DNA of 64,000 nt from Candidatus Falkowbacteria bacterium (GTDB taxonomy: Bacteria; Patescibacteriota; Patescibacteriia; Patescibacteriales; UBA12465). The position numbers and the translations under genes were made by a program. The stretch lies in contig JBAXLJ010000002.1 in assembly GCA_037134915.1 (NCBI GenBank), positions 192,935 to 256,934 on the forward strand, in the 5' to 3' direction. The notes beneath the pieces were generated by a model. That model was given only the letters and a program-made list of their open reading frames with translations, did not search any database and was not told the DNA's origin. Positions 6,163 through 32,583 of the stretch are shown here, one piece after another. Each line of letters opens with the position of its first letter. Within the stretch, counting starts at the first letter, position 1.

Positions 6163-6170
6163 TCAGTTAT

Positions 6171-6203
6171 AAAAGAGCCTTCTAACTTAGAAGGCTCTTT
6201 TTT
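6171..6203. terminator. Bidirectional terminator between convergent genes
   Basis: AAAAGAGCCTTC-taactta-GAAGGCTCTTTTTT, with an A-tract on one side and a T-tract on the other. Confidence 0.75.
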
Positions 6204-6212
6204 GGTGGTTTT

Positions 6213-6632
6213 TTATTTTTTTAACAAATCCCTGATTTCACTGAGCAGTTTCTGATCTTTAGTGAGTTCTGGTTCAGGGGCAATCTTAGCTTCTTCATCT
6301 TTGTGGCGCTGCAACTGGTCCTTTAAGCGAGCCAGTAATTTAATCATAAGGAAAATGGCGCCGGTGATAATTAGAAAATCAACAATATTCTGGATAAAAG
6401 TGCCGATGTTGAGCGTTAGCGGCGGCAGGTTGCCGGCCGATTCGCGAAGAATAACCTTCCAGCTGGTAAAAGACTCACCTTTAGTCAGTAGTCCCGCTAA
6501 GGGCATGATAATATCAGTGACTAAGGAGGTCACTATTTTGCCAAAGGCGCCGCCGATGATAACCGCGGTGGCCAGTTCAATGGCGTTGCCTTTAACGGCA
6601 AACTCTTTAAATTCTTGAATAATTTTTTTCAT
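6213..6632 (-). CDS. mscL: Large-conductance mechanosensitive channel
   Basis: MKKIIQEFKEFAVKGNAIELATAVIIGGAFGKIVTSLVTDIIMP is the canonical MscL N-terminus/TM1. Length is 139 aa. Confidence 0.95.
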   Translation of the reverse strand: MKKIIQEFKEFAVKGNAIELATAVIIGGAFGKIVTSLVTDIIMPLAGLLTKGESFTSWKVILRESAGNLPPLTLNIGTFIQNIVDFLIITGAIFLMIKLLARLKDQLQRHKDEEAKIAPEPELTKDQKLLSEIRDLLKK

Positions 6633-6690
6633 AATTATATTATAGTATTTTTTTATTTTTTTATCAAAATTAGGACCTTATTTAATTTTT

Positions 6691-6699
6691 TGTTAAAAT
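6691..6699 (+). promoter_or_regulatory. Extended -10 element TGTTAAAAT (leaderless geometry)
   Basis: The -10 ends 6 nt before the rlmH ATG (6706). Confidence 0.45.
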
Positions 6700-6705
6700 T
6701 AGAAT

Positions 6706-7164
6706 ATGTTAAATATTACATTAGTTACGGTGGGAAAAATTAAAGAAGCTTACTTAAGTGAGGCCGCCACTTCTTATATTAAAAGAATTAAGCCTTACGG
6801 GCGCTTAAATATTTTAGAGGTTAAAGCGGAATCTTTTTCGACGGCCACTAAAGATAAAGCTAAAAATAATGAAGCGCTAAAAATCCAAGCTATTTTAGAT
6901 AATAAAAGGGAAGCGCAAATCTATTTGATGTCGGAGCATGGCACTTTATTTAATTCTTTAGAATTCGCTACTAAAATAGAAAATCCTCAAGAAATTGTTT
7001 TAGTCATTGCTGGGAGTCTCGGTTTTGCTAAGGAGCTGGAGGCTAAATACCCGAAAATATCACTCTCGCCCTTAACTTTTCCGCATGAGCTGGCGCGCGT
7101 TATTTTGCTGGAACAAATTTATCGAGCGGCTACGATTATAAATCATAAAGAATATCACTATTAA
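6706..7164 (+). CDS. rlmH: 23S rRNA (pseudouridine1915-N3)-methyltransferase
   Basis: 152-aa SPOUT protein. MLNITLVTVGKIKEAYL at the N-terminus and LSLSPLTFPHELARVILLEQIYRA at the C-terminus match RlmH. Confidence 0.9.
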   Translation: MLNITLVTVGKIKEAYLSEAATSYIKRIKPYGRLNILEVKAESFSTATKDKAKNNEALKIQAILDNKREAQIYLMSEHGTLFNSLEFATKIENPQEIVLVIAGSLGFAKELEAKYPKISLSPLTFPHELARVILLEQIYRAATIINHKEYHY

Positions 7165-7259
7165 GAAAAAAGGCTTTCGGTTGAAGGAAAGCTTTTTAGT
7201 GTTTTTAGAAGGTAGTGGGAACTTGATTGACAACATCAATAAACTAATATTGTTACACT

Positions 7260-7985
7260 ATGTCTAGTTTAACTAAGTTAATTCGCCAAGCTAAGAGCCT
7301 TTATTCGGTTGAAAGGGCGGAGCACTCCAAATATTTCTTTAAGACCGGCCCGGGGCAATATGGCGCGGGTGATATCTTTTGGGGCTTAAGTGTTCCGGAG
7401 ATGAGAGTTCTGGCTAAAGAATTTTCTAATTTGAGTTTAATTGAGGTTAGTAGTTTGCTTGCCGAATCGGTTCATGAATTGCGCCTGATCGGTTTAACTA
7501 TTTTAGTTAATCAGTATCAAGCGGCTAAGACCGATTTAGAGCGCCAAAAGGTTTATAAGTTTTATTTAAAGCATCGAGCGGCGGCTAATAATTGGGATTT
7601 AGTAGATCTATCAGTTTATAAGATAATGGGCGATTATTTAGTGAGACATCCGCAAGAGCGGACAATTCTTTACCGCCTCGTTAAATCAAAAAATCTTTGG
7701 GAGCGTCGTCTTGCTATGGTGTCAACTATGGCTTTTATTCGCAACCAAGAAAGTGCCGATGTTCTTAAATTAGCAGGCCTGCTTTTAAATGACTCCGAAG
7801 ATTTACTCCATAAAGCCAGTGGCTGGATGCTAAGAGAGCTCGGCAAAAGGAATGAAAAATTACTCTGCGATTTTTTAGATGACAATGCTTCACGGATGCC
7901 ACGCACCATGCTTAGATACGCCATTGAACGCTTAGCGGAGCCCAAACGTTTAAAATATTTAAAAATAAAGAGGGAGATGTTATAA
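7260..7985 (+). CDS. DNA alkylation repair protein (AlkD/AlkC-like HEAT-repeat glycosylase family)
   Basis: YFFKTGPGQYGAGDIFWGLSVPEMRVLAKEF and NLWERRLAMVSTMAF are typical of the DNA_alkylation family. Confidence 0.8.
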   Translation: MSSLTKLIRQAKSLYSVERAEHSKYFFKTGPGQYGAGDIFWGLSVPEMRVLAKEFSNLSLIEVSSLLAESVHELRLIGLTILVNQYQAAKTDLERQKVYKFYLKHRAAANNWDLVDLSVYKIMGDYLVRHPQERTILYRLVKSKNLWERRLAMVSTMAFIRNQESADVLKLAGLLLNDSEDLLHKASGWMLRELGKRNEKLLCDFLDDNASRMPRTMLRYAIERLAEPKRLKYLKIKREML

Positions 7986-7986
7986 T
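7978..7986 (+). promoter_or_regulatory. Extended -10 element TGTTATAAT
   Basis: Overlaps the end of the preceding gene, 27 nt upstream of the ATG at 8014. Confidence 0.4.
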
Positions 7987-8013
7987 AAAATCATAATAAA
8001 TTAAATTAGTTAT

Positions 8014-8781
8014 ATGGAAAAAGAAACTTTAACTTGGCGCAGCCCTAAAACAATTCTCCTGCTGTTAATTATTCTAGGAATTACGGCCACGATTGTCATC
8101 TCAATTTTAAGGGATCGAATTACTAATCAACAATTTAGGCAGGTGACTGTTACTGGGCAAGGTAAGATTTCTTATGAACCAGATTTAGCGATTGTGACTC
8201 TGGGTGTCCAAATTGATAAAGCGAAGACAGCGGATTTAGCTTTAAAACAATTAAACGATAAGATGGCTAAAATTATGGCCGCTGTTTATGCTAATAAAAT
8301 TCCGGAGGCGGATATTTCTACTTCAGTTTATTCCTTGTCACCGCAATATGATTACAAAGATAATGTTTCGGTTGTTTCCGGTTATAATGCTAATGAACAG
8401 TTGATTATTAAAGTTCGTAACTATGATAAGGATCAAAATAATTTAAACAAGATAATTTCGGTGGCCACCTTAGCCGGCGCCAATCAAGTTAGCGGTTTAG
8501 CTTTTGACGTCTCTAATGTTAATGATTTAAAACAAGCGGCCAGAATCAAAGCGATTGGCGATGCTAAGGCTAAAGCTCAAGTTTTGGCCACCGCGGCCGG
8601 AGTAAAACTCAAAGATATTTCCAGTTGGTATGAAAATGTTTTACAAGTGCCATCGCCAGTTTACGCCGCTGGTATCGGGGGCGGAGCTAGTGGTATGGGT
8701 GGCGGCGGTGGATTACCGCAAACGCCAAGCGGACTTAAGGAAATAATTATTGAAATGAACCTAACTTATAATTTAAAATAG
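8014..8781 (+). CDS. SIMPL (DUF541) domain protein
   Basis: N-terminal TM, then VTVTGQGKISYEPDLAIVTLGV and ARIKAIGDAKAKAQVLA. Gly-rich segment near the C-terminus. Confidence 0.8.
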   Translation: MEKETLTWRSPKTILLLLIILGITATIVISILRDRITNQQFRQVTVTGQGKISYEPDLAIVTLGVQIDKAKTADLALKQLNDKMAKIMAAVYANKIPEADISTSVYSLSPQYDYKDNVSVVSGYNANEQLIIKVRNYDKDQNNLNKIISVATLAGANQVSGLAFDVSNVNDLKQAARIKAIGDAKAKAQVLATAAGVKLKDISSWYENVLQVPSPVYAAGIGGGASGMGGGGGLPQTPSGLKEIIIEMNLTYNLK

Positions 8782-8789
8782 AAAGATAT

Positions 8790-8824
8790 AAAAAAGACCG
8801 AAATTACTCTCGGTCTCTTTTTTT
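8790..8824. terminator. Bidirectional terminator
   Basis: AAAAAAGACCG-aaattactct-CGGTCTCTTTTTTT between convergent genes. Confidence 0.75.
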
Positions 8825-9158
8825 ATTCGATAATTTTTTGTAAATCACTAAGGCTAATTGGTTTAGTGTGAAAATCGTCGCAGCCGACATTTAAGGCTCT
8901 TTTTCGGTCATCATGGTAAGCCGCTATCATAAAAATTTTGACGATTTCATTAAGAGCTCTTATTTCTTCAACTACTTTAAAACCGTCAATATTGTTTAAA
9001 TGAGAATTAATAATCACAAAGTCCGGTTGATGTTCAAAAAACATTTCTAAAGCGTCTTTGCCATCAGTGGTTGTAAAAAGATGATGGTTCATAAAAACTC
9101 TTTCATAATAACTCAGGGACACCGGGTCGCAATCAGCAATCAAAATTTTCTTTTTCAT
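8823..9158 (-). CDS. Stand-alone receiver (CheY-like) domain lacking the phospho-acceptor Asp
   Basis: KKILIADCD..., DFVIINSHLNNIDG and FHTKPIS align to CheY D12/13, D57 and K109. The D57 position is Asn and the T87 position is Ala. Confidence 0.8.
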   Translation of the reverse strand: MKKKILIADCDPVSLSYYERVFMNHHLFTTTDGKDALEMFFEHQPDFVIINSHLNNIDGFKVVEEIRALNEIVKIFMIAAYHDDRKRALNVGCDDFHTKPISLSDLQKIIE

Positions 9159-9268
9159 TTTTTAGGATTTTTAAGTTACGTTAAAGTGAATTATAATGAT
9201 TTTTTACCTTTTGTAAAGGCTCTGCCTACGGCTCATAATTAACAATTAACTAGCTCGGCCCCTGTTTA

Positions 9269-9297
9269 TTGGCAAATATTTTTACGTGTGATATAAT
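9269..9297 (+). promoter_or_regulatory. Sigma-70-type promoter of hup
   Basis: TTGGCA, a 17-nt spacer, then TGaTATAAT. This implies a ~125-nt 5' UTR containing a 12-bp hairpin (TTGAAAGTTTGT..ACAAATTTTCAA). Confidence 0.55.
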
Positions 9298-9427
9298 ACT
9301 CTTGTAAATAAAGGTTAATTGAAAGTTTGTATTTTAAAAACAAATTTTCAATTTAATAATTTAGGCAGAAGTGATTTTAATTATTTTTTTTAAAGAATAA
9401 TTATTTATTACAAAGCCCCATGCAACT

Positions 9428-9709
9428 ATGTCTAAAATGACAAAGGCTCAAATGGTAGCCAACTTAGCTGAAGCCACTGGCTATGCTAAGAAAGAAGTAG
9501 CAATGTTTTTAGAAACTATTGCTGAACTAACTTATAAAGAAGTTAAGAAGAATGGTGAATGCATCGTTCCTGGCTTCGGTAAATTAGTTAAAGCAAAAAG
9601 AAAAGCTCGTGAAGGCCGCAATCCAGCTACTGGCGAAACTATCAAAATCCCAGCTAAAACTGTGGTTAAGTTCCGTCTAGCTAAAGCGGTTAAAGATGCT
9701 GTTCTATAA
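9428..9709 (+). CDS. hup: DNA-binding protein HU
   Basis: 93 aa. GFGKLVKAKRKAREGRNPATGETIKIPAKTVVKFRLAKAVKD is the HU/IHF arm. Codon usage is biased in the way expected of a highly expressed gene. Confidence 0.95.
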   Translation: MSKMTKAQMVANLAEATGYAKKEVAMFLETIAELTYKEVKKNGECIVPGFGKLVKAKRKAREGRNPATGETIKIPAKTVVKFRLAKAVKDAVL

Positions 9710-9733
9710 TTTGTAAACAGCGAACTCGTATAT

Positions 9734-9768
9734 AAAAAAATCACCTTCGGAATCGGGTGATTTTTTTT
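9734..9768 (+). terminator. Rho-independent terminator of hup
   Basis: AAAAAAATCACC-ttcggaatcg-GGTGATTTTTTTT. Confidence 0.8.
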
Positions 9769-9849
9769 ATTCTCGGGAATTTTTTATTTTTAGAGAATCT
9801 CGGTTCTAAAAGAACCATCCTTCTTTATTTTGATAACGCCGCTAAATAA

Positions 9850-9960
9850 ATTTACGATTCGGTTGGCCTGGTCGTTGAAGTTGGCAAAAATATATTAGTT
9901 GTTGACTTTGATCCTCTCGTCCATCGCTTTAAGCAAAACAATATTGTTAGCATCTGGTAA
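9850..9960 (+). pseudogene. Possible relic of a ParA/MinD-like ATPase gene
   Basis: Two adjacent frames read ..FTIRLAWSLKLAK and ..VGKNILVVDFDP. The ParA pattern is ..TAxNLAxxLAxxGKKVLLVDLDPQ. There is no Walker A, the frames are broken and the ORF is 37 codons. Confidence 0.3.
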
Positions 9961-9981
9961 ATTAATTTAAGAGAGTCATAA

Positions 9982-10221
9982 TTACTCAAGATATTGGCCT
10001 AAACCATTTTTATTTAACTTATTTTTGAGTTTTATATTTCGATTTAAAAAAGATAAGAGAGAACCCAGTTCGATCTTATAGCGGTCCTTAACTATTTTGT
10101 ATTTTAGATTCGGGTCATTCTTTAGAGCCCGGCGAATAGTTTTAGGATCGACGCCACCTAGTTTGGCTGAAGAAGAAACAGAAAACCACAGCGGGGAAGC
10201 GATTTCTTTGTCTGGATTCAT
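9982..10221 (-). CDS. Small HTH protein, excisionase/MerR-like DNA-binding domain
   Basis: WFSVSSSAKLGGVDPKTIRRALKN..YKI....LLSFL matches the excisionase-family HTH pattern. 79 aa. Confidence 0.5.
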   Translation of the reverse strand: MNPDKEIASPLWFSVSSSAKLGGVDPKTIRRALKNDPNLKYKIVKDRYKIELGSLLSFLNRNIKLKNKLNKNGLGQYLE

Positions 10222-10663
10222 AAAATAATAGCTAAGTCCATTATAGCTTGGACTAAAGTATTATTATTGTCGGTCTTTTTAATTTAAAAGTCAAGATAAA
10301 CTATTTTATATTATCTTATATTTTAATCTTCTTTCGAAAAATGAAGGATTTCTGCTCCAAGGCGTATAAATAAAAGGAGGGGTTAGAAAAAGAGATTAAT
10401 CTTGCTCTTTTTTGTCACTTATGCTAATATTGTGGCAACTAATAAGAGGCAAAAGTTGCAGGGAAATGAATAATTCCCTTATTTTTTATTAAAATACCAA
10501 ACATCTGAAACTACCACTGGCTAAAAAATTTAAAGATAAACAAACCTTAAGTCGTCTTAAAAATAAGGACAAAGAAGTCTTTATTAAGGTTTATGACGAT
10601 TTTGCGGGCGATATCTACCGCTTTGTCTATTTTAAGGTCGGCCATGTCGAGGAGGCCAAAGAT

Positions 10664-11080
10664 TTGACTTCCATGATTTTTCTTAAAACTTGGAATCATA
10701 TCCAAAATAATAGTTTAACAAGTAGTGGCACGCTGCGGGCCCTTCTATATAAGATCGCCCGAACCTCAATTGTTGATTATTATCGGGAGACCGGTAATAA
10801 ACTAGAGGTATCTTTAAATGACGAGGAGCATCCGATTGATTTGCCAGATGAAAACATTGATTTGGAGGCTAATTTAGACCGAAATACCGATTTAGCCAGA
10901 ATTAATAGCAAATTGCCACTTCTTAAGGAGGAATATCGGGAAGTAATTGTCTTAAAATTCGTTAATGACTTAGATATTGAAGAGATTAGTGAGGTGACTG
11001 GTAAAACTAAGGGTAATATCCGCGTTTTGCTACATCGCTCACTGGCAGCTCTTAAAGAATTATTAGAAGACGATAAATAG
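10664..11080 (+). CDS. Sigma-70 family (ECF-type) RNA polymerase sigma factor; true N-terminus lies upstream of the ORF-track start
   Basis: Region 4 HTH: EYREVIVLKFVNDLDIEEISEVTGKTKGNIRVLLHRSLAALKE. Region 2 (DIYRFVYFKVGHVEEAKDLTSMIFLKTW) continues in frame upstream to 10493 with no ATG/GTG/TTG (see findings). Confidence 0.85.
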   Translation: MTSMIFLKTWNHIQNNSLTSSGTLRALLYKIARTSIVDYYRETGNKLEVSLNDEEHPIDLPDENIDLEANLDRNTDLARINSKLPLLKEEYREVIVLKFVNDLDIEEISEVTGKTKGNIRVLLHRSLAALKELLEDDK

Positions 11081-11160
11081 TAGGAGAAAATCCGAGAAAA
11101 ACGTCATAGTTTTTGCAACTGTAACGTTTTTTCTTTTTTTACGTATATTAGGACGTAATA

Positions 11161-11922
11161 ATGTGTAATTTTATGACTGACCGCGATCTTATCAAAAAAT
11201 TAGGTAATCTTAAAGAAATTAAACCCGATGCTAGCTGGTTAAAAGCTAATCGGGATTCTTTGTATACCCAAATTTCTAACTCAGGGGCGACTAATTTGAC
11301 AGTTTGGTCGTCTTTTGTGATTAACTTCAGAAGTGCCTTAATGGCGGTTTCCACTCCGGCGGCGGCCTTAGCTTCAATTATGTTAGTTGTCATCGCTTCC
11401 AGCGCTTACGCTCACTTATTACTCGTTAACACTAAGCCTAACCAATCATTATATATTGCCCGTGAGATTTCCGAGAAAGCAAAACTGACCACGATTTTAA
11501 ACACTGATGCTAGAGAGAAAATGGCTGGACAGTTTGCCGCTAATAACGCTCAAGATATTACCACGGTTTTATCTGATCCAACTTTCAATAACGAACAAGA
11601 AATTGCTAAATTAAATGTTAAGTTTGATGAAGAGATTAAAACAGTTCAAAAGAGCGTGGCTAAGTTAGACAAACAAAGCGTGGCTAAAGAGGCAACCCCA
11701 AAATTACTCGCCACTGGTAGTGATGAGGTTTTTAGTGCCACCGTTGGCAAAGATAAGGTTGGGGTTTCGCTAGTGGGCACAACGACTTCGGCCGCGGATA
11801 ATGTTTTAAATACCACTTCCACCACCACCAAGATTTTAGAAGAAGCTAAAAGTTTATTTGATAATAAAAATTACACAGAAGCACTTAACAAATTAAAAGA
11901 AGTAAATAACCTAATTAAGTAA
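11161..11922 (+). CDS. Single-pass membrane protein, putative anti-sigma factor
   Basis: Immediately follows the sigma gene. It has a cytoplasmic N-terminus (probable start ATG 11173), one TM (ALMAVSTPAAALASIMLVVIASSAYA) and an extracytoplasmic C-terminus. The call rests on position and topology only. Confidence 0.45.
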   Translation: MCNFMTDRDLIKKLGNLKEIKPDASWLKANRDSLYTQISNSGATNLTVWSSFVINFRSALMAVSTPAAALASIMLVVIASSAYAHLLLVNTKPNQSLYIAREISEKAKLTTILNTDAREKMAGQFAANNAQDITTVLSDPTFNNEQEIAKLNVKFDEEIKTVQKSVAKLDKQSVAKEATPKLLATGSDEVFSATVGKDKVGVSLVGTTTSAADNVLNTTSTTTKILEEAKSLFDNKNYTEALNKLKEVNNLIK

Positions 11923-12339
11923 GGCGTAAGTAGCGCTGAGCTGTTAGTTTATCTCTTTTCTGAAACATTCCTTTTCGGAAGATTCTTACATCATCTGATT
12001 TGGCTGGGCGGTTTGAGATAAATTAACAGGTCTGCGTTTAGTTCGCTAAGACAGATCAGTGAAACCCCGTAAAGGGTCGGGTCCCGCAAGGGATTGGTTT
12101 CGCTCTATTAAAAATCAAAAAAATTCGGGGATAAGCTAAAATCGCGAGATACCCAAGTGTACATCGATTTAGCTTTTCACTAGTCCGCAATTCTAGCGCG
12201 ATTAGGGAAGCGGGATTCCGATTGATGTACCCAATGGTGTACACCTCGTAATGGCAGCTTTAACCGAATAAATCTCGGAAGGGAATTGTTCTTACTAATG
12301 TTGTAGGGACGCTCAACTTCCGAATCCTTAATTACAAAT
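11923..12339 (+). promoter_or_regulatory. Structured ~0.4-kb non-coding leader upstream of the S-layer candidate
   Basis: 15-bp helix 11941-11955/12015-12029. Three-way junction 12061-12101 with a GCAA (GNRA) tetraloop hairpin and a GUAAA-loop hairpin. Competing pairings exist (AATCGCG 12139-12145 with CGCGATT 12197-12203; AAGCTAAAATCG with CGATTTAGCTT). Direct repeat TACCCAA(G/TG)GTGTACA at 12150 and 12228. Confidence 0.5.
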
Positions 12340-15300
12340 ATGAAAAATTTACGCAAGTTCTTAACTATCGGCGTAATGACATTAACTATCTTAGGAATGA
12401 CTGGCATTAACGTTAATGCTGCTGCTCCTCAAGCTGGTGACCTCATCAAGATGGACGGTCTTTCAACTGTTTATTTCTTGGGCAACGATGGTAAGAGATA
12501 TGTTTACCCAACTTCTTCTGTATATTTCTCTTGGCACAAGGATTTTAGTGGCGTAGTAACTGTTTCTGCTTCAGAATTACAGAGCTACCCATTAGGTTCC
12601 AACATTACCGTGAGACCTGGTACAAAATTAGTTAAAATCACAACTGATCCTTCCGTATATGCTGTTGAAGCTAATGGCACATTAAGAAAGATCGCTAGCG
12701 AAGCTGATGCTATCGCTATCTATGGTGCAAACTGGGCAAAGAGAGTTATTGATGTTCCTGATGCTTTCTTCACCAACTACACTATTGGTACAGCTTTGAC
12801 TTCTGGTCAAATCCCTGCTGGCACTTTAGTAAAGAATGCTAATTCCGGTGCTATCTATTTATATGATGGTACTAACTATCGTTCTATTGCTACTGAAGCT
12901 GCTTTCAATGCAAATAGATATGATTTCGCTAATGTAATCACTATTTCCAACGCTATTACAGCTGGTGGAACTGCTATTACAGGTGCTGAATCTTTAAACT
13001 ATGATGCACAAAACAGCACCAACAACAATAATGTTGTAACAACTTCTGGTGTTACAGTTAGTGTTTCTGCAAATACTGCAGCTGCATCTTCTGTTATCGG
13101 AGGACAAGCTTTAGCTGACTTAGCTTCTTTCAACTTCACCGCTTCTAACGACGGTCAAGCTGTTATCAAGACTATTAAGTTAAAGAGAATTGGTATTTCT
13201 TCTGACTCTTCTTTAGATAACGTTTATCTTTACGATGGTGTTACAAGATTAACTGACGGTGCTACTTTCTCTAATGGTTATGTTTCTTTCTCCAATGGTA
13301 CTGGTATTATTTCCATCCCAGCTGGTCAAACAAAAACATTAACTGTTAAAGGTGATGTCGCTGTTGGCGCTACTGGTAATATCGGTGTAGCTATTAACGC
13401 TGCTTCTGATATTATTTCTTCAGCTGCTGCAATCACTGGCTCTTTCCCAATTTCTGGTAATTTAATGAGCCCAACTGCTGCTTCTGATCTTTCCAAGGTT
13501 GCTTTAACTCTTAACCCAGTTGCTGCAACTGCTAAGGCTGGTAATACTAATACTATTATCTGGTCTAACACTGCTAACGTTACTAGCAAAGCTGTTGATT
13601 TCAAGTACATTGCTTTCAAGCAAATTGGATCAATTAATGCTAGTGATTTAGCAAATTTAAGCTTATACGTTGATGGTACTAAAGTTGGCACTGCTACTTT
13701 AAACAACAACGATTTAGCTTTCAACTTAGCTACTCCAGTTAGATTGAATACCGGAACTCACACTATTGAGTTAAAGGCTGATATCATCACTGGTTCAAGC
13801 CGCACTTTCAGCTTCTCTTTACAGACAGCTGCTAATGCTGTGTTCACTGACACTAACTACAATGTTAATGTAGCTCCTACTTCTTCCTTAGGTTTCGGTG
13901 GTACAACTGTTACAATCAGCCAAGGTACTTTAAGTATCTCTGCTGACTCCACTTTCAATGATACTCAAATCGTTAAGACTGCAACTAATGCAACTTTAAG
14001 CCGATTTAAGATCAAAGCTTTTGGTGAAGATGTTAAAGTAAATACTTTTGGCATCAGCGTTGTAACTAACGGTACAACTTCTGCAACTACAACTGAAAAA
14101 ATTAATGACTTAGCAATTGTCGTTAATGGAAGTCAAGTTGGTTCTTCCAAATCCATCGCTGTAGTTACTGGTACTCCAGCAACTACTGCTGCATCTTTTG
14201 GTACAACCAATTTATTCACTATCCCAGCTGGTACTGAAGTTGTTGTTGAAATCAAGGGTTCTTTAAGTCTTGATACCAACACAGCTATGAAAGATATTAA
14301 GGTTAATATCTCTGGCATCACTGCCCAAGGTGTTACTTCTTATGGATCTATCTCAGGTGCAGCTACTACTGCAAACAATACTTTAAGCATCGTTTCTGGC
14401 AGCATGACTGTTGCTAAGAATACCAACACTCAAGATCAATATGTTTCCAAGAATGTCCAAAAGGTCAAGATTGGTTCATACATCTTATCTGCTGGTTCTG
14501 CTGAAGGCGTAAACATCTCTAATGTTAGAGTTAACTTTACTTCTACTTCAACAGCTGACTTAAACAATGTTAGCAACCTATATATCAGTGAAAACACCAC
14601 TCCAGTTAACCCTCAAACTAATAACGATTTCAATACTAATTTGACAATCGATAAGAGCCAGAGCAAGACTATTGATGTTTATGCTGACTTAGGTGACTTA
14701 GCAAATGGTATTAAAGTTCAAACTTCTTTAGTCGTTACTTATAAGACTACTGTAACTCAGACCTTTGGTACTTCTGCAGAAACTTTAGGTCAGGTTATGA
14801 CTTTAGCTACTGCAACTTTAGACAGCGTTTCCAATGTATCTGATACTCCAGCTTCTGGCTTTGTATTAGGTGGAAATACTGCTACTGCTGCTAAATTGAA
14901 GTTCGTTGCCACTAACGGCGCTGCTACTATCAATGAGTTATACTTCACAGTTAACTCTTCCATAGATGCAATTAGCCAAATTACTGTTGACGGTGTTACT
15001 GCTCCAGTAATCGGTGGTAAGGTTGTTATGACTGGTTTAAACACTGTTATTGCTGCTGGTCTTCAAGGTGTTAACGTTGAAGTTAAGGCTGCTTATAACA
15101 ATGTAACTTCCGCAGGTCAAGGTGGTGTTGCTACAGGTAATACTGTCAACTTAACCTTAACTGGTATGAAGTATACTGTTAATGGTGCTCAATCCACTTC
15201 TGGTACTTTAGCTGTAAATACTAATTCCATGAAGTTGGTATCCGCTCTTCCTACTGTTGTTGACGCTTCTTCCTATGGATCAAACGCTAACTTAGTACCT

Positions 15301-15714
15301 AGCGGAAAATCTGAAGTAATGAGATTCTCTGTAACTGCTACTGGTAATAATCCTATTAACATGAAGCAGATCAGCTTAACTCCTTACTTTGATTACACCA
15401 TCCCTGCTGCAACCAGCTCCATCAAGATTTATGACGCTTCTGATTTATCAAACGTCTTATCTACTTCAACTGCTGTCTTTACAACATCTGGTACTCGCTC
15501 TAACGTAGCCTTTACTAATGATGTAACTGTTTCCGCTGGAACAACCCGTACTTTCGTTGTCTACGCTGACAACACTGGTACTGCTTCCACAACAGGTAAC
15601 TACTTCAGAATGGATATGGTTAACCCAGGTTGGTTATGGAACGATTCCACAATCACTGGTACTATCGATGGTACTTATGTGAAGGAATTCACTGGTACTA
15701 CCTTCAAGAAATAA
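12340..15714 (+). CDS. Major secreted surface protein, S-layer candidate (1124 aa)
   Basis: Signal peptide MKNLRKFLTIGVMTLTILGMTGINVNA. Thr/Ser/Ala/Asn/Gly-rich beta-type sequence without Cys. Strong codon bias (GCT/ACT/GGT/TCT, TTC/TAC/AAC/ATC, few NCG codons) is shared with hup. Strong terminator. Confidence 0.7.
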   Translation: MKNLRKFLTIGVMTLTILGMTGINVNAAAPQAGDLIKMDGLSTVYFLGNDGKRYVYPTSSVYFSWHKDFSGVVTVSASELQSYPLGSNITVRPGTKLVKITTDPSVYAVEANGTLRKIASEADAIAIYGANWAKRVIDVPDAFFTNYTIGTALTSGQIPAGTLVKNANSGAIYLYDGTNYRSIATEAAFNANRYDFANVITISNAITAGGTAITGAESLNYDAQNSTNNNNVVTTSGVTVSVSANTAAASSVIGGQALADLASFNFTASNDGQAVIKTIKLKRIGISSDSSLDNVYLYDGVTRLTDGATFSNGYVSFSNGTGIISIPAGQTKTLTVKGDVAVGATGNIGVAINAASDIISSAAAITGSFPISGNLMSPTAASDLSKVALTLNPVAATAKAGNTNTIIWSNTANVTSKAVDFKYIAFKQIGSINASDLANLSLYVDGTKVGTATLNNNDLAFNLATPVRLNTGTHTIELKADIITGSSRTFSFSLQTAANAVFTDTNYNVNVAPTSSLGFGGTTVTISQGTLSISADSTFNDTQIVKTATNATLSRFKIKAFGEDVKVNTFGISVVTNGTTSATTTEKINDLAIVVNGSQVGSSKSIAVVTGTPATTAASFGTTNLFTIPAGTEVVVEIKGSLSLDTNTAMKDIKVNISGITAQGVTSYGSISGAATTANNTLSIVSGSMTVAKNTNTQDQYVSKNVQKVKIGSYILSAGSAEGVNISNVRVNFTSTSTADLNNVSNLYISENTTPVNPQTNNDFNTNLTIDKSQSKTIDVYADLGDLANGIKVQTSLVVTYKTTVTQTFGTSAETLGQVMTLATATLDSVSNVSDTPASGFVLGGNTATAAKLKFVATNGAATINELYFTVNSSIDAISQITVDGVTAPVIGGKVVMTGLNTVIAAGLQGVNVEVKAAYNNVTSAGQGGVATGNTVNLTLTGMKYTVNGAQSTSGTLAVNTNSMKLVSALPTVVDASSYGSNANLVPSGKSEVMRFSVTATGNNPINMKQISLTPYFDYTIPAATSSIKIYDASDLSNVLSTSTAVFTTSGTRSNVAFTNDVTVSAGTTRTFVVYADNTGTASTTGNYFRMDMVNPGWLWNDSTITGTIDGTYVKEFTGTTFKK

Positions 15715-15743
15715 TCTTAGATTAATTCTTTGATAGTAATAAA

Positions 15744-15768
15744 AGAGCCCCTTCGGGGGCTCTTTTTG
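15744..15768 (+). terminator. Rho-independent terminator
   Basis: AGAGCCCC-ttcg-GGGGCTCT followed by TTTTGTTT. Confidence 0.85.
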
Positions 15769-15792
15769 TTTAGTTACGAATAATTAATTTTA

Positions 15793-15801
15793 TGTTATAA
15801 T
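15793..15801 (+). promoter_or_regulatory. Extended -10 element TGTTATAAT
   Basis: 29 nt upstream of the ATG at 15831. Confidence 0.45.
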
Positions 15802-15830
15802 ATATTTATATTTTTATAATTAAAATTAAT

Positions 15831-18320
15831 ATGAAAAAATTAATCACTTTATTTTTATTCGCCGTCGCTCTTTTTGGTTTGCAAATATCTATTGCTAGCG
15901 CCGCTTCGACCACTTTATCTCTTTCTAGTACTGGAGAAGGAGATAATGTTCAGATCTCAGTTTCGGGCGATCCTAGCTCAGGCGTTTTATTGCTTTTTCA
16001 GAAGACTAGTGGTACCTCTTTTATTAAATATTTAGGATCTAGCAACGCTAGTGGTTATTACTCGGCTACCTTTAGTACGGCTGATTTAGATGTGGCCCCG
16101 GGGTCATCAGTCCAAGTTAAGATTAATAACCAATTATCGGCTTCTGTAAATTGGCCTTATAATTCTGTAACTAATAGTGGTGCGATAACTTTAAGCAAAA
16201 CCGGTTTAATTTTAAGCGTCGGTGGAAATAATACGATAAATATAAATAATTTAGGTTCCAATAAAGTTTATCTATTAAACAATACTAATCCGCAAGTCGC
16301 TAATATTAATTTAAGCGGTTCTCAGGCGACAGTTTATGCTAATGCCTATGGTCAAACCGTTGCTACAATTTGTGTGTTAGGCACAACTTCTAACTGTGCC
16401 AGCGCCTATATTACGGTCCAAAATTCTGGCGCCCAGCCTTTAACTTTGAGTCAAAGTAATCTGACTATCGCTTATGGTCAAAGTTCTCAGGTTTCTATTT
16501 TAAATAGCACCGGAAATTACACAATTTTAAATAATTCCAACCCTAATGTTATTACCGCCAGTTTAAATGCCCAAACTATTACTTTAAATGCCAGTAACAA
16601 TGGTGGTTCGGCGGCTATTACAATTTGCACCACGGATATGAGTGCCTGTGGCATTATTAATGCCACGGTTGGTTCACTTAGTTCTTCGGCTTTAACTTTT
16701 AATCAAACGGCACCAACTCTAGCGGTTGGGCAAACTTTAATAGTGACAATTTCTGGTAGCGATGGCCCTTATAATATTTCCTCTAATTCTAATTCTAGTA
16801 TTGTAAATGCTTTTATTTCAGGCAACACTTTAAATTTAGTTGGTAATGGTGTTGGCTCTTCGGTGGTCACAGTTTGTTCTTCACAAGGGAACTGTAATTC
16901 TTTAACGGCTACAGTGAGCTACGCCTCAAACGGCGGCGCCTTGTCTTTAAGCCAAACTAATTTATGGTTACAGGTTGGCCAAGCGGCTAGTGTGGTCGTT
17001 TCTGGTGGCACAGCTCCTTATAGCTTTTTAAATGATGCTAGTTCAGCTACTTATTTCCAGACCAGTTTAAATAATAATATTTTAACCTTGACCGGTATTA
17101 GTGCTGGTTCAGCCAATATTAATGTCTGCTCCGCTGGTGGAGCCTGCAAACAATTGTCAGTTCTAGTAAATGGTGTTAGTTCTAACACTCAATTAACTTT
17201 TGGTAATAATAATTTAAATTTACGGGTCGGCGCCACTTCGGACGTTACTTTATATGGTTCGGGCGGCTACTATATTTCTAACAGTGTTAATCAAAATGTT
17301 GCCACGATTGTGGTAAATGGTAATAAGGCCACTGTCACTGCCGTTGGGGCGGGGAGCGCTAACGCTACTGTTTGCCAGACCGGTGGTCAATGTGGTGTGA
17401 TCTATGTTTCTGTGACCGCTACTAATTCGCTAATACCAATTGCTTTTAATGCCAGTAATCCGACTCTTTCCGTGGGACAAAATTTTAGTGTTTCCATTTC
17501 TGGTGGTTCTAGCAACGTCTATTACATCTCTTCAAATTCTAATCCCGCCATTGTGCAAGCTAATATCAGCGGTAGTATTTTATCGTTAACCGGTAATGTC
17601 AGTGGTTCTTCAGTAATTAATATTTGTTCAGCGACTAATAACTGTAATTCTTTGTCAGTCACCGTTAATAATGTGGTTACTCCAGTTATTGTCGCTCCGA
17701 CACCCACCACCACTCCAACTAGCACACCTACCCCCGTAGTTAATACCGATGAAGCTTTGTTAATTTTTAACGGCAATGTTGAAACTATCGCTAGTAAAGT
17801 CGGAGCTAAACGTAACACCGCTACCGAAAAAAACTATTTAACTCGTTACACTAAACCACTGCTTGTCGGATTAAAATTAAGCACCGCGGCGATAAATAAC
17901 CTTAATTATTTTATCGTTTATGGCACCCCGAGCACGGTCAAATTAGGCGCCGGCGAACGGGCTGGAGTTTTGGGTTCATACCTTAGTGCTTATAAAAAAT
18001 TACCGACAGCTTTAACTGATTGGTCTGATTTAATTAGAATTAGTACTGGTAATCAACCGGTGGGATTAAGTGTGGCTGCTGAAAATCAAGCTAAACTAGA
18101 ATTTAAAAAAGTTTATAACCGGGCACCCGCCATGGCCACCAGTAACACTGATTTAAGTGCCGTTAAAATTATTGCTTATGGCCTTCGTTTCCCAATTCGT
18201 AATGCTAGTGCCGAAAAAGCAGCCGTTAAAGCCTTTACTAAAGTTTACGCCCACGCTCCGATTAGCCCCTTAGCCTGGAATATCGTTCGAGCAATCACTT
18301 ATAGTGGCGTTATTAAATAA
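15831..18320 (+). CDS. Secreted protein with six tandem Cys-paired Ig-like (Big_2-like) repeats, PT linker and conserved C-terminal domain
   Basis: Signal peptide ..LQISIASA. Six repeats of ~83 aa. Linker APTPTTTPTSTPTP. The ~190-aa C-terminal domain (..GERAGVLGSYLSAYKKLP..DWSDL..) has unknown function. Confidence 0.8.
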   Translation: MKKLITLFLFAVALFGLQISIASAASTTLSLSSTGEGDNVQISVSGDPSSGVLLLFQKTSGTSFIKYLGSSNASGYYSATFSTADLDVAPGSSVQVKINNQLSASVNWPYNSVTNSGAITLSKTGLILSVGGNNTININNLGSNKVYLLNNTNPQVANINLSGSQATVYANAYGQTVATICVLGTTSNCASAYITVQNSGAQPLTLSQSNLTIAYGQSSQVSILNSTGNYTILNNSNPNVITASLNAQTITLNASNNGGSAAITICTTDMSACGIINATVGSLSSSALTFNQTAPTLAVGQTLIVTISGSDGPYNISSNSNSSIVNAFISGNTLNLVGNGVGSSVVTVCSSQGNCNSLTATVSYASNGGALSLSQTNLWLQVGQAASVVVSGGTAPYSFLNDASSATYFQTSLNNNILTLTGISAGSANINVCSAGGACKQLSVLVNGVSSNTQLTFGNNNLNLRVGATSDVTLYGSGGYYISNSVNQNVATIVVNGNKATVTAVGAGSANATVCQTGGQCGVIYVSVTATNSLIPIAFNASNPTLSVGQNFSVSISGGSSNVYYISSNSNPAIVQANISGSILSLTGNVSGSSVINICSATNNCNSLSVTVNNVVTPVIVAPTPTTTPTSTPTPVVNTDEALLIFNGNVETIASKVGAKRNTATEKNYLTRYTKPLLVGLKLSTAAINNLNYFIVYGTPSTVKLGAGERAGVLGSYLSAYKKLPTALTDWSDLIRISTGNQPVGLSVAAENQAKLEFKKVYNRAPAMATSNTDLSAVKIIAYGLRFPIRNASAEKAAVKAFTKVYAHAPISPLAWNIVRAITYSGVIK
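16179..17672 (+). repeat. Six tandem ~250-nt coding repeats (protein-level ~83-aa units)
   Basis: Each unit has the form L(T/S)(L/F)..S/N..L.L.VGQ....V..SG....Y.I.SNSN..(I)V.A.(I)SGN.L.L.G...GS..(I/V).(I/V)C(5-7 aa)C....V.V. Examples: VTVCSSQGNCNSLTATV, INVCSAGGACKQLSVLV, ATVCQTGGQCGVIYVSV, INICSATNNCNSLSVTV. Confidence 0.8.
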
Positions 18321-18432
18321 AAAAATGAAATATATAAAGGCCTCTCTTTGTCGGGAGGCTTTTTGCTTTTTTAGCAACTAATGCTAAAATATACTAGGTA
18401 TTAATTATTATTGACTATTAATTTCTTTTATT

Positions 18433-20589
18433 ATGACTTCAAAATTTTATCTGCGTGTTTTGCAGTTTGGCGCCATTGCTTCACTGGTTACTGTTTTTCT
18501 GGTTTTTTCGGATTTGTTATTTCCTTATATTACTTCTAAGCAGTTAACCTTCAACATTTTAACCGAGTTCTTATTGCTTATTTGGGCCGTTTTTATTTGG
18601 AAATTTCCAACCTACAGACCCAAAAAATCTTTAATTACCTGGGGCATTATCGCTTTTTTAGGGGCGATTTTACTGTCTTGTTTTGTGAGTGTTGATTTTA
18701 ATACCAGTTTTTGGGGGGACGCTGAGAGAATGTTGGGCGTTTTTCATATTATTCATTTCTTCTTCTTATATTTAGTCTTAATTACGGTTTTTAAGTCTTA
18801 TAAAGACTGGCAAGTTCTGCTCGCTTCTTCAGTGGCGATTGCGACTATTGTCAGTATTATGGGGCTCGCGGGTAATGCTTATAGTACAATCGGTAATACG
18901 GCTTATGTTAGCGGTTATCTTATTTTTAATTTATATTTTTGTGCTTTGTTGTTCTTTAGGGCTAAAAAACAGAGCTGGCGCTGGTTTCTGCTGATTCCGG
19001 TGCTGATTATGTTGTTTGAATTTGCCAAGACTCATACTTCTGGGGCGATTATCGGGCTAGGTATCAGCGTACTTTTTATCGTTTTCTTAATTGGCGTTTT
19101 ACATCAGAACAAGAAAATTAAGATTGCCGCCTGGAGTTCTCTAATTATGGCTATTTTAATTTTGGTGTTAATTTTTTCGCAACAAAATGCTGCCTGGTTT
19201 GAAAATTCCTTTCTTAAAAATTTAACCGCTCAAAAAGCCACCTTTCAAACCCGTTTAATTTCTTGGGAAGCGGCCGCTAAGGATTTTCACAATCATCCTT
19301 TACTCGGCGTAGGCTTTGGTAATTATTCGGTGATTTTTGATCGTTATTTCCAGGCTAAATTTTATGACTACTCCAGAGGTGATACCTATTTTGACCGGGC
19401 TCATAATAATTTAATTGATATTGCCTCAACCTCAGGAATTATTGGTTTACTCGCTTATCTAAGTATTTTTGTAGCGGTCATTATTTATTTACTTCAACTG
19501 ATTAAAAAAGATCGTCATAATTTTGAACCTATTATTTTAATTGGTTTGTTTACGGCTTACTTTATTCAGAATTTGGCGGTTTTTGATTCGCTTGTGACTT
19601 ATATTGGACTGATGATTTCCTTGGCTTATATTTATTATTTAATTAATCCGGAAACAGCCAAGGAAACCGAAAAACCAGTGGCCGAATTTACGGCGCTCAC
19701 GATTGGTTTTATCATTGTCTTAATCCTAACTAATTATTTCAATATCAGACCGTGGCAAGCCTTTCAGGGGGTAATTAAGGGCTATACCGCCTTGGTTCAG
19801 GGTGAGGTAAATTATGGCCTGGAAGTTTACAAAGACGCCTTTTCCAGTAACACGCCTTTAGACCGCGATGGCAAAACAGCGCTTATTAATTCCGTGATTA
19901 CTTCGCCGCAAGTTATTTTCCAATTACCACCGGCTGAAGGTAAGGCGGCGATGGATTATGTAATCTCTTTAGCCAGAGAAAATCTAGAAAATAATTATGA
20001 AGATAGCTTGATGCAGCTACAGCTGGCTCAAGTAAATAGTTTGGCTTTTGGTTTAAAAATAAACAACCCTCAGGCTTTAAATACCTATTATGATGACGCT
20101 TTAAAGGCAGTCGATGCTTCTATTGGGGCTAGCCCACAAAGAATTCCGGTTTACTTTATGAAAGCTAATATTCTGCTGGCTAAAGGGAACTACGACGGGG
20201 CCATTTCGGTAATTAACCAATCAATTGAGTTTAATCCTAAGTTTCCTGATACTTATTGTCAGCTCTACCGCATTTACTCCCTTAAGAAAGATCTTAAAAA
20301 TGCCTATGCCTATGGTGACAAATGTGTCGATTTAAAAGGCGGTGACACTCTGGGTATGAGTAAAGAATTTTTAGCTTTAATTGATCATTATTATCAAGCT
20401 AAAGACTGGGATAGATCAATTGCCCTAATTAAACAATTAGTGATTTATCAGCCTAATAATGAACAAGCCTGGCGTTTTCTGGCTGAAGTTTATCAGCAGT
20501 CGGGTGATATTATGGATGCTAATGAAGCTTTAAGCCATGTTAGCGCTAAGACTGGTAATCCGGCGACTACTTCCAGTTCGCTTGAATAA
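18433..20589 (+). CDS. O-antigen ligase/polymerase-like (Wzy_C) polytopic membrane protein fused to C-terminal TPR repeats
   Basis: About 12 TM segments. The loop HNHPLLGVGFGNYSVIF is typical of Wzy_C/WaaL/PglL-type proteins. The C-terminal ~250 aa carry TPR-like repeats (AISVINQSIEFNPKFPDTYCQLYRIY; AKDWDRSIALIKQLVIYQPNNEQAWRFLAEVYQQSGD). Confidence 0.8.
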   Translation: MTSKFYLRVLQFGAIASLVTVFLVFSDLLFPYITSKQLTFNILTEFLLLIWAVFIWKFPTYRPKKSLITWGIIAFLGAILLSCFVSVDFNTSFWGDAERMLGVFHIIHFFFLYLVLITVFKSYKDWQVLLASSVAIATIVSIMGLAGNAYSTIGNTAYVSGYLIFNLYFCALLFFRAKKQSWRWFLLIPVLIMLFEFAKTHTSGAIIGLGISVLFIVFLIGVLHQNKKIKIAAWSSLIMAILILVLIFSQQNAAWFENSFLKNLTAQKATFQTRLISWEAAAKDFHNHPLLGVGFGNYSVIFDRYFQAKFYDYSRGDTYFDRAHNNLIDIASTSGIIGLLAYLSIFVAVIIYLLQLIKKDRHNFEPIILIGLFTAYFIQNLAVFDSLVTYIGLMISLAYIYYLINPETAKETEKPVAEFTALTIGFIIVLILTNYFNIRPWQAFQGVIKGYTALVQGEVNYGLEVYKDAFSSNTPLDRDGKTALINSVITSPQVIFQLPPAEGKAAMDYVISLARENLENNYEDSLMQLQLAQVNSLAFGLKINNPQALNTYYDDALKAVDASIGASPQRIPVYFMKANILLAKGNYDGAISVINQSIEFNPKFPDTYCQLYRIYSLKKDLKNAYAYGDKCVDLKGGDTLGMSKEFLALIDHYYQAKDWDRSIALIKQLVIYQPNNEQAWRFLAEVYQQSGDIMDANEALSHVSAKTGNPATTSSSLE

Positions 20590-20810
20590 TAAAAATTTTT
20601 AGGAAAATAAAAAAATCGATTTATCGCTTGGTAGGTCGATTTTTTAATTATGTCAAATAATAATATTTATTTTAAAAATAATAATAAATTGGTTTTAGTA
20701 TTTTTTGAGGTTTTGTTAAGGCAGCCTTAATTAGCTTTTTGTTATGATATTTTCATATTAATTGCTTAGCTTAATTTAAATCTTTTTATTTTAAGCGGCA
20801 CTTCAAAAAT

Positions 20811-21761
20811 ATGGATAAAATAAAAATCATTTGGCAAAAAACAAGAGATTTTATTAAAAAACATTGGTTAATTTGCGCTGGTTCTTTTGGATTCATCTTA
20901 CTTATTATGATGTTTTTGCCAGTCTTTCGTTCGAGCTGGCTCTATTATCCAGATTCTCTGCGTGGCCGGATTGCGCTTAAAAAATTGGCAGCGGCTTCAG
21001 AAACCGGAATTTATTGTCACGAAGATTGCAGCGCCAAGAGTCTCTTATACAAAAATATAATCAGTTCAGCTTTAGCTAAGGAAAAGGAAAAATTATTACC
21101 TGATTTAGAAGCAGCTATTTTAGATTTTAAAGTTTTACCAGAAAATAGAAAAATGTTAATTGATCTCTGGCAAGTCAGTGGGCAAGAGCCGAGCGCTAAG
21201 CTTAAAGAATTTTATAACAACCCTAATAATCCTTTGGTTTTAAGAGCGGCGCTAGTTAAAGCTTGGCCACAGCTAGACAGTGGTTCTGGGGTAGCGGAGA
21301 TGGTTGGTAGTTTTAAAGCTGCAACTAGTGAGGCGCAAAAGATTGAGATTCTTAATTTACTAACTGGTAAAAGTGAGGCAGTAGTCCTTAAATTAATTTG
21401 GGATTTAATTTTAGGTGATTACTCGGATAATTTAAAAAATAAAGCTTGGTTTTTACTGGCCAACATTGATAATAAACAAATTGCTTATCAAGCGATTGAT
21501 CTAGATAATTTACGATTAGTTTTAGAATCTGGGACTTATCCGTCGCGCTTAAAAGATCAGGCTATTTTAGTTCTAAATGATTATTATCTTTACTATCCGG
21601 AGCTTAGCCAGTCTTTACTAGTTGATGTGGTTAATCGAACCAAATATTTTGACGACTATCAAAGAAGTTTCGCGATTGATATCCTAAATCGCTACCGAAC
21701 AGATAAAATCATGATGCCCGAATTATCCTTAGATGACTGGAATGCTTATTTTAAAAATTAA
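20811..21761 (+). CDS. Hypothetical N-terminally anchored alpha-helical protein
   Basis: One TM (WLICAGSFGFILLIMMFLPVF), with the remainder helical-repeat-like. No motif recognised. Confidence 0.5.
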   Translation: MDKIKIIWQKTRDFIKKHWLICAGSFGFILLIMMFLPVFRSSWLYYPDSLRGRIALKKLAAASETGIYCHEDCSAKSLLYKNIISSALAKEKEKLLPDLEAAILDFKVLPENRKMLIDLWQVSGQEPSAKLKEFYNNPNNPLVLRAALVKAWPQLDSGSGVAEMVGSFKAATSEAQKIEILNLLTGKSEAVVLKLIWDLILGDYSDNLKNKAWFLLANIDNKQIAYQAIDLDNLRLVLESGTYPSRLKDQAILVLNDYYLYYPELSQSLLVDVVNRTKYFDDYQRSFAIDILNRYRTDKIMMPELSLDDWNAYFKN

Positions 21762-21803
21762 TAAATAATAAAAAAGCGGCGCCCCCTTAGCTAGCTTAAA
21801 GTT

Positions 21804-32499: not shown

Positions 32500-32583
32500 T
32501 GCCGCGGGAGGGAATCGAACCCTCATGATATCGCTACCACACGAGTTTGAGTCGTGCGCGTCTACCAATTCCGCCACCGCGGC
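32500..32583 (-). tRNA. tRNA-Leu (anticodon CAA), class II with long variable arm; CCA not encoded
   Basis: Reverse complement GCCGCGG-TG-GCGG-AATTGGTAGA-CGCG-CACGA-CTCAAAC-TCGTG-TGGTAGCGATATCAT-GAGGG-TTCGATT-CCCTC-CCGCGGC-A. A hairpin plus T-run follows at 32492-32462. Confidence 0.93.

Follow-up and report, generated by a model that had tools for sequence, protein, structure and literature searches.

The 64,000-nucleotide stretch of a Candidatus Falkowbacteria genome analysed here (the window; G000:C2:192935-256934, G000 being the genome of 0.98 Mb, 37.5% G+C and 9 contigs) carries a conserved Falkowbacteria-type Patescibacteria cassette: genes for an extracytoplasmic function (ECF) sigma factor and an anti-sigma-like protein, a structured leader RNA of ~0.4 kb, and a gene for a large secreted surface protein. 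This leader, an RNA of modular build with covarying helices, is strictly tied to the surface-protein gene, across the order by one of its modules (module B) and across the class by another (module A). The gene is the most strongly codon-optimised of its genome, and its transcripts in situ include at least the 3' two-thirds of the leader. The 1124-residue secreted protein is probably the main cell-surface coat, an S-layer-type candidate. We consider it fairly probable that the two belong together as a major envelope (S-layer-type) protein and a cis-acting 5' untranslated region (UTR) that secures very high, probably adjustable output.

The surface-protein open reading frame (ORF; 12340-15714, + strand) has a signal-like N-terminus and not a single cysteine, as the initial annotation had described. 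Also in agreement with that description, the protein is dominated by Thr (14.1%), Ala (10.8%), Ser (10.2%), Asn (8.8%) and Gly (8.5%), which sum to 52.5%, and its mature pI is 5.6. The narrow codon set for which the gene had been singled out is equally real. NCG codons, GGG and CTG have no uses, and GCT (78%), ACT (72%), GGT (72%), TTC (72%) and AAG (69%) prevail among the codons of their amino acids. Codon and start-site statistics were drawn from the 798 ORFs of at least 120 aa in the genome. The effective number of codons, 34.0, is the lowest of all (rank 1 of 798; median 48.6). On a codon adaptation index built from ribosomal and elongation factor genes it ranks 28th of 798. Taken codon by codon, its departures from average usage in the genome are correlated with the departures of the same reference set (r 0.79, 55 codons). 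The genes nearest to it in codon usage are those of EF-Tu, S1, L7/L12 and S2, and hup would rank about fourth. The claim that hup is the sole other gene of the window with this bias also held, hup scoring 0.561 on the codon weights of the surface-protein gene and the next ORF of the window 0.505.

Parts of 11600-13600 are present in nine metatranscriptome runs. Four runs were mapped on 6000-22000, three of them from one freshwater sample, with 33-61 million letters each. Contigs of these three runs, at 100% identity, cover hup (9319-9744) and the region from 12036/12054 to 15702; besides these, only a 168-nt piece (11230-11397, one run) is covered within 6000-22000. A single 803-nt RNA contig spans 12054-12839 at 100% identity and joins leader and coding sequence, so that leader and gene are co-transcribed from 12054 on, in the manner of an slpA-type 5' UTR. 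No contig reaches 15831 or beyond in the runs that cover the surface-protein gene, which is an absence of cover only. DNA carry-over would not yield such a contig pattern. High expression of the gene is thus supported by two independent proxies, codon bias and RNA contig cover.

The leader occupies the 417 nt between the anti-sigma-like gene and the ATG (11923-12339) and comprises the following parts.

11930-12040, + strand: domain 1, a long helix (11930-11955/12015-12040, including an invariant 15 bp) with an apical hairpin at 11975-11998; genus consensus fold.
12058-12104, + strand: module A, an outer helix (12058-12067/12095-12104), the box AAAGGGTCGG at 12071-12080 and an inner GCAA hairpin (12081-12094); architecture and covariation.
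12105-12122, + strand: A/U-rich single-stranded linker; a similar stretch follows module A in most relatives.
12123-12269, + strand: domain 3, an irregular, extended hairpin whose tip is module B; genus consensus, helices H3a-d.
12157-12235, + strand: module B core, with P1 (12159-12169/12220-12230), P2a (12172-12177/12206-12211) and P2b (12180-12185/12200-12205); match to model R1 and covariation.
12278-12321, + strand: hairpin 4; minimum free energy (MFE) fold and genus consensus.
12322-12339, + strand: unpaired A/U-rich start region without a Shine-Dalgarno (SD) sequence; MFE and consensus folds.

The leader is as structured as had been proposed: its predicted folding energy is -139 kcal/mol, whereas 100 shuffled versions give -106.7 +/- 5.3 (z -6.08). 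Several of the proposed details also survive comparison with relatives. The 15-bp helix (11941-11955/12015-12029) is invariant in all six genus sequences and contains one G.U pair, and the GCAA hairpin is present at 12081-12094. What had been drawn as a three-way junction around it is, comparatively, a hairpin with an asymmetric internal loop of 12-13 nt that holds an invariant AAAGGUCG-type box. The GUAAA-loop hairpin is a 2-bp mini-hairpin specific to the genus, and the mutually exclusive pairings suggested around 12130-12210 give way to a single long covarying hairpin (12123-12269), of which this stretch is the 5' half. Leader DNA is conserved in five of ten other genomes of the genus (68-86% identity over ~280-400 nt), and three further genera share a 25-nt core at 96% identity. 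In the genus consensus of six sequences, 30 of the 110 pairs show compensatory changes, which answers the call for covariation in relatives. Rfam 15, run over the whole window at the gathering threshold, returned only RNase P and two tRNAs and no leader family. On the leader itself (E <= 10) it gave two snoRNA chance matches far below the cut-offs, and on the leaders of ten diverse relatives 0 matches at E <= 0.1. The leader represents a new, strongly covarying family of structured RNA with no entry in Rfam. A conserved leader peptide was considered and rejected: the 5-codon ORF at 12235 corresponds to a 70-codon out-of-frame ORF in L002, and the lengths of the indels among the genus sequences are not divisible by three.

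Module B was followed through the order, for which 151 genomes were sampled (114 of high quality), with a further 151 across the class and 151 across the phylum. Its pattern matches once in the window and not at all in shuffles. An exact-pattern scan with one genome per species yielded 70 loci, among which we estimate ~9 chance matches. The 53 low-G+C loci were retained and 17 were dropped as chance: these were of high G+C (Rhizobium, Planctomycetota, Paenibacillus and others), all without the 5' half. De-duplication with L001-L010 left 55 unique loci. In 54 of them the orthologous ORF begins 37-191 nt past the core, the 55th locus ending too early. The N-terminus of the orthologous ORF bears the hallmarks M.KLRK (signal) and AGDLIKMDGLS.VYYLG. 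Many of the low-G+C contigs with this Patescibacteria-type locus (L011-L080) are deposited as 'uncultured Gammaproteobacteria bacterium', which look like default labels rather than taxonomy. In a 34-sequence alignment, 95.2% of the cells of the module B helices are paired (34-48% when the helices are slid), and 77 cells carry double changes against 22.3 +/- 4.4 in shuffles, 0 of 500 shuffles reaching as high. In an independent set of 30 matches found with a model of the module (R1), 95.7% of cells are paired, 13 pairs show compensatory changes, and double changes occur in 109 cells against 30.3, in an alignment that was fitted to the model. Between the helices lies an unpaired bulge, GGGATTCC at 12212-12219 in the window, which is kept as GGGAUUCC in 28-29 of the 29 relatives found with the model. 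The hairpin that separates the halves of the module ranges from 12 to 269 nt across lineages. In most of them (e.g. L011, L018, L027, which have large insertions here) it holds a further conserved GUGAAU..CCCAUG..UUUAC element, absent from the genus of the window. A possible pseudoknot would join the CCC loop of this element to the GGG in the invariant bulge.

Model R1 matches its own genome at G000:C2:205091-205169. It finds exactly one match per genome in 95 of the 151 order genomes. Among them are 80 of the 114 genomes of high quality and 18 of 18 from the family, and 18 of the 26 families are represented. By eye, a match to the N-terminal domain of the surface protein lies 200-470 nt downstream on the same strand in each of the first 30 listed matches outside G000. 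Across the phylum sample R1 found nothing beyond G000 (1 of 151), and with filters off it found nothing in five sister-order loci. Among nine order genomes that have the protein and no R1 match, the core was recovered with filters off in three (E 2.9e-8, 0.0015 and 0.013). It is very improbable, in our judgement, that the RNA comes from a small or medium-sized non-coding gene of its own, with the surface-protein gene as a mere neighbour. Its size and complexity are like those of stand-alone structured RNAs and the spacer to the ATG is variable, but one contig joins 12054-12839, no terminator lies between core and ATG, and orientation and adjacency to the gene hold in every locus checked.

Module A reaches beyond module B. 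A AAAGGUCG-type box lies upstream of the core in 53 of the 55 loci, with G3, G4 and G7 of the box invariant (53/53), and the box is found in 9/9 of the protein-bearing order genomes without an R1 match and in 3/3 oriented sister-order loci. RNAalifold returned 0 pairs on gappy MAFFT alignments of the module, so each sequence was instead folded singly under constraint, with shuffles as control, and a seed of nine sequences was registered by hand. With the box held unpaired, 42 of 53 relatives fold into a common architecture (outer helix, 5' internal loop of 12-13 nt, inner hairpin, 0-1 nt on the 3' side); sets with shuffled flanks average 2.55 of 53 and never exceed 8. In 25 model-found sequences all 13 pairs are compensatory and 95.9% of cells are paired (36-47% when slid), with a covariation score of 0.954 against 0.27. 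The models of module A, R2 and R3, are short and insensitive: R2 gave 25 matches in 65 sources (E <= 0.01) and missed the window. R3 matched 10 genomes of other orders of the class, in 10/10 directly upstream of a homologue of the N-terminal domain. It missed G000 and three order genomes, two of them (G033, G039) with a box seen otherwise, so the class tally is at least 10 of 151. One family of the order (L122, L128, L129) keeps module A, but in place of module B a different conserved structure, rich in G+C (..cccgttgtcctgcttgcaagc.gggtcggggaggcccgg..), precedes the orthologous gene. Mimicry of ribosomal RNA by the boxes was rejected: box B occurs nowhere else in the genome, and 9-mers resembling box A number 5 against ~7 expected by chance, none of them in the rRNA contig.

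The invariant unpaired nucleotides, framed by covarying helices in an aptamer-like fold, bring to mind a riboswitch, single or tandem, in which one or both modules would recognise a small molecule or ion linked to envelope synthesis and tune surface-protein expression. The leader also lies strictly in cis upstream of one gene family, and module B is single-copy per genome. On the other hand, no expression platform was seen, there is no terminator-like hairpin in the leader, and the start region is unpaired in the MFE and consensus folds. Sequestration of an SD sequence is irrelevant because the genome is SD-poor. The distance from core to ATG ranges over 37-191 nt with unrelated spacer sequences, and module B has been lost or replaced where module A is kept. 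We therefore hold a riboswitch to be rather improbable. The leader resembles riboswitches and T-box RNAs in its covarying helices framing invariant loops, its single downstream gene family and its single-copy occurrence, and differs from them in that no expression platform was seen and no Rfam model matches.

A second alternative, which we find about equally hard to favour, is that the leader is mainly a processing or stability element. The domain 1 duplex would be cleaved (e.g. by RNase III), or a promoter would lie in its 3' arm, and the mRNA would start at ~12030-12058 with module A at its 5' end. The contigs do begin at 12036 (X3), 12040 (X4, another study, with 4 mismatches) and 12054 (X1, with an adapter-like loose end), and none covers 11923-12035; these ends would fit an internal start or cleavage of the ~26-bp duplex that domain 1 forms, and domain 1 may then lie outside the mature mRNA. 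Promoter-like boxes and domain 1 helices of relatives, which were read by eye, can be called on by both sides. L011-type lineages lack domain 1 and have a sigma-70-like box (TTGATN-17-TAKAGT) directly before the next hairpin. In several genera, however, domain 1 follows a TATAAT-like box and its helix retains G.U pairs on this strand, which argues that domain 1 is transcribed; in genera other than that of the window the helix persists although its sequences differ, and includes G.U pairs. Furthermore, RNA ends are not readable from contigs, and processing would leave the invariant boxes unexplained.

A close parallel among known leaders is found in Lactobacillus. One study (PMC3666127) describes S-layer genes with long stabilising 5' UTRs and biased codon usage, and gives mRNA stabilisation, with half-lives of ~15 min, as the reported role of the slpA leader in L. 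acidophilus and L. crispatus. Like slpA, the present gene is a codon-biased surface-protein gene behind a long structured leader. Unlike that of slpA, the present leader is ~0.4 kb long and modular, with invariant unpaired boxes and covariation across order and class, and the two share no sequence or Rfam relation. Since simple stabilisation fails to explain invariant unpaired boxes, the leader is probably more than a passive stabiliser, and it may be a ligand- or protein-responsive element.

The surface protein itself divides into a conserved and a variable part, and its gene ends in the strong terminator that had been noted (an 11-bp stem followed by a T run).

12340-12420, + strand: signal-peptide-like N-terminus, aa 1-27, ending VNA|AA; M1, R5 and K6 conserved, residues 1-28 with a predicted local distance difference test score (pLDDT) <50.
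12421-12999, + strand: conserved N-terminal triple-repeat domain, aa 28-220, a candidate wall-anchoring module; alignment, model and relatedness of the units.
13048-15714, + strand: variable all-beta body, aa 237-1124, an Ig-like beta-sandwich array, plus stop codon; AlphaFold2 (AF2) model.
15741-15766, + strand: intrinsic-terminator-like hairpin and T run; RNA contigs end at 15665-15702.

That the N-terminus contains three related units was confirmed by profile-profile comparison (units 1 and 3, P 2.3e-8; 1 and 2, P 1.2e-3; 2 and 3, P 8.6e-4), and the structure prediction that had been called for gives a confident model of the triple repeat (pLDDT 92.5, predicted template modelling score 0.83). 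Mean column identity of the domain over a 49-sequence alignment is 64%. Twenty-four full-length homologues are 25-65% identical overall, with the first ~200 aa highly conserved; 14 of the 24 have no cysteine and 23 have a pI of 4.05-6.14. In all, 1252 homologues were found, of 618-1967 aa and all 'hypothetical', and in the Protein Atlas the clusters nearest to the N-terminal part are likewise unnamed 'hypothetical' proteins. The N-terminal domain is present in 130 of the 151 order genomes (107 of 114 of high quality), usually on one ORF of ~1200 aa, and some order genomes bear it on extra proteins. A second repeat protein of the same genome, secreted and 494 aa long (G000:C2:7851-9335, - strand, equal to L113:1258-2742), has four C-terminal copies of the ~55-aa repeat of the surface protein; its N-terminal half had no match in Pfam or in a PDB-sequence search.

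Triple repeats are a familiar device for wall anchoring, as in the S-layer proteins held by three SLH or three CWB2 units. The present protein is similar in having three tandem units of ~55 aa at one end of a large polypeptide, and in that the module is common to further secreted proteins in related genomes. It differs in that its units have no match to Pfam SLH or CW_binding_2, neither of which is among the Pfam families listed for the 49 N-terminal domains at E <= 1. The fold weakly matches the repeats of EccB1, PlyCB and the wall-binding domains of enterococcal phage endolysins, the aligned part being unit 1 (model residues 4-63). We regard the triple repeat as a new candidate wall-anchoring repeat. 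To judge from its distribution among sequences, the N-terminal module appears to behave as a shared surface-anchoring module, which is compatible with an S-layer protein and no proof of one.

The body (AF2 model, pLDDT 80.1) is less telling, since a Foldseek search with the whole protein returned generic multi-Ig arrays only (template modelling scores 0.07-0.18). Arrays of Ig-like domains are typical of adhesins, the Ig-like domains of PrgB are among the top matches, and a variable body suggests selection at an interface. The protein could thus belong to another abundant surface structure, such as an adhesin or host-contact fibre. We think this unlikely, because the codon bias exceeds that of ribosomal genes, the protein is near-universal in the order, usually as a single copy of ~1200 aa, and its composition is acidic, rich in Thr, Ser, Ala, Asn and Gly, and free of cysteine. 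The reading of the protein as an S-layer-type envelope component fits its conserved N-terminal module and variable beta-sandwich body, its near-universality in the order and the neighbouring Wzy_C-type membrane protein.

How might such a cassette work? On the explanation that we favour, the protein would be tethered to the wall by its conserved triple repeat, with the variable beta-sandwich array as the exposed layer. As a 5' UTR acting in cis, the leader would protect the mRNA with its base-paired 5' domains. A trans-acting factor, which could be a protein, a small ligand or the ribosome, would dock at the invariant unpaired boxes (the AAAGGUCG loop and the GGGAUUCC bulge). The start region would stay open and A/U-rich in an organism that hardly uses SD sequences. 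An SD-like motif (GGAGG or AGGAG within 20 nt upstream) precedes ~3% of the 798 ORFs, upstream regions being A/U-rich, and the 3' end of the 16S rRNA on G000:C7 keeps the canonical anti-SD CACCTCCTTTCT. Going further, and only tentatively, one may imagine that the leader represents an undescribed large multi-domain regulatory RNA class specific to this class of Patescibacteria. Its pockets, AAAGGUCG and GGGAUUCC, would bind a signal or protein and couple coat production to envelope or host-contact status, possibly with the ECF sigma/anti-sigma pair.

Several observations weigh against the joint interpretation of coat protein and cis-acting leader. Some order genomes carry the protein with module B absent or diverged. 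Folds and a terminator scan gave no terminator or antiterminator in the leader and no sequestration of the start site, and pairing of the bulge with the spacer or start region was rejected as a general feature (duplex energies against shuffles: mean z -0.37, 9 of 54 loci below -1.64). In the mapped runs no contig covers 11923-12035, again an absence of cover only, and contigs can neither rank expression nor show RNA ends, so that the contig pattern is support and not proof. The choices of AGA, GCA, ACA and GTA in the surface-protein gene depart from those of the ribosomal set. Neither Pfam (0 families at E <= 0.01) nor NCBIfam identifies an anchor domain in the protein, and sister orders carry the N-terminal module on up to 13 proteins per genome; the module alone is therefore no S-layer marker.

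The remaining genes of interest in the neighbourhood are these.

9428-9709, + strand: hup (HU); same codon bias, RNA contigs, often further upstream in relatives.
10505-11080, + strand: ECF-type sigma factor of 191 aa, CTG start at 10505 inferred; Sigma70_r2 and r4_2.
11161-11922, + strand: anti-sigma-like protein of 253 aa with one hydrophobic span; position and synteny.
18433-20589, + strand: Wzy_C (O-antigen-ligase-type) and TPR membrane protein; Pfam.

The sigma frame is open from 10494 and contains no ATG, GTG or TTG before 10664, leaving 57 conserved codons upstream of the first such start. The sigma factors of relatives begin M(S/A/T).(L/T)(V/A)(K/Q)KF and the window has a CTG at the matching place, which makes a CTG start likely. 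Given that start, the protein scores 73.7 on the ECF sigma model TIGR02937 (cut-off 42.9), so that half of the postulated sigma/anti-sigma pair stands. The other half is named from position and a single membrane span: the ORF has no Pfam or NCBIfam family and no recognisable anti-sigma domain (e.g. zf-HC2, RskA). Homologues of both lie upstream in 42 of the 45 loci with enough sequence. This synteny is what speaks for the suggestion that the leader is under the adjacent sigma factor; the promoter-like boxes of relatives look sigma-70-like, not ECF-like, and no ECF-type promoter was identified. Of the initial picture of a major envelope protein behind a leader, high expression is supported, and a conserved leader, co-transcribed at least in its 3' part, has held up; for sigma control the support is synteny. 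In Streptomyces, Sigma-BldN and RsbN control the chaplin and rodlin surface proteins. The present arrangement is similar, an ECF sigma factor (best family BldN-type, 112.5) and a membrane anti-sigma-like partner adjoining the gene of a probably abundant surface protein. Unlike BldN, the present sigma factor is below the family cut-off (206), and the regulatory link is a candidate one.

Just upstream of the sigma gene, at 10400-10490, a box of sigma-70 type (TTGCTC-17-TAATAT, read by eye) stands before a terminator-like hairpin and T run (10460-10479), an arrangement that could be an attenuator or yield a small transcript. Directly downstream of the surface-protein gene, 15831-18320 encodes an 829-aa secreted, Cys-containing repeat protein with a weak T2SS-T3SS_pil_N match. 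The Wzy_C/TPR protein, which has a downstream homologue in L018, L022, L027, L045 and L055, is a possible glycosylation partner of the surface protein. Elsewhere in the window lie a class A RNase P RNA (25287-25656, 226.9 bits) and two tRNAs (32500-32583, - strand; 59267-59337).

A literature search found no paper on an S-layer leader RNA of Patescibacteria. One preprint predicts S-layer proteins in Patescibacteria (Paceibacterales/Nealsonbacteria); its available text makes no mention of Falkowbacteria, and its supplements may list the present family. With the cassette described here, one order has a concrete candidate for its main surface protein, and a near-universal one. The Patescibacteria (Candidate Phyla Radiation) are ultra-small bacteria that make up a large, mostly uncultured part of bacterial diversity, and to our knowledge almost nothing is known of their gene regulation or of how they build their envelope. 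The leader RNA offers a testable handle on post-transcriptional control in organisms where SD-led initiation is largely lacking, and a ready-made high-expression element for the genetic tools now being built for Patescibacteria.

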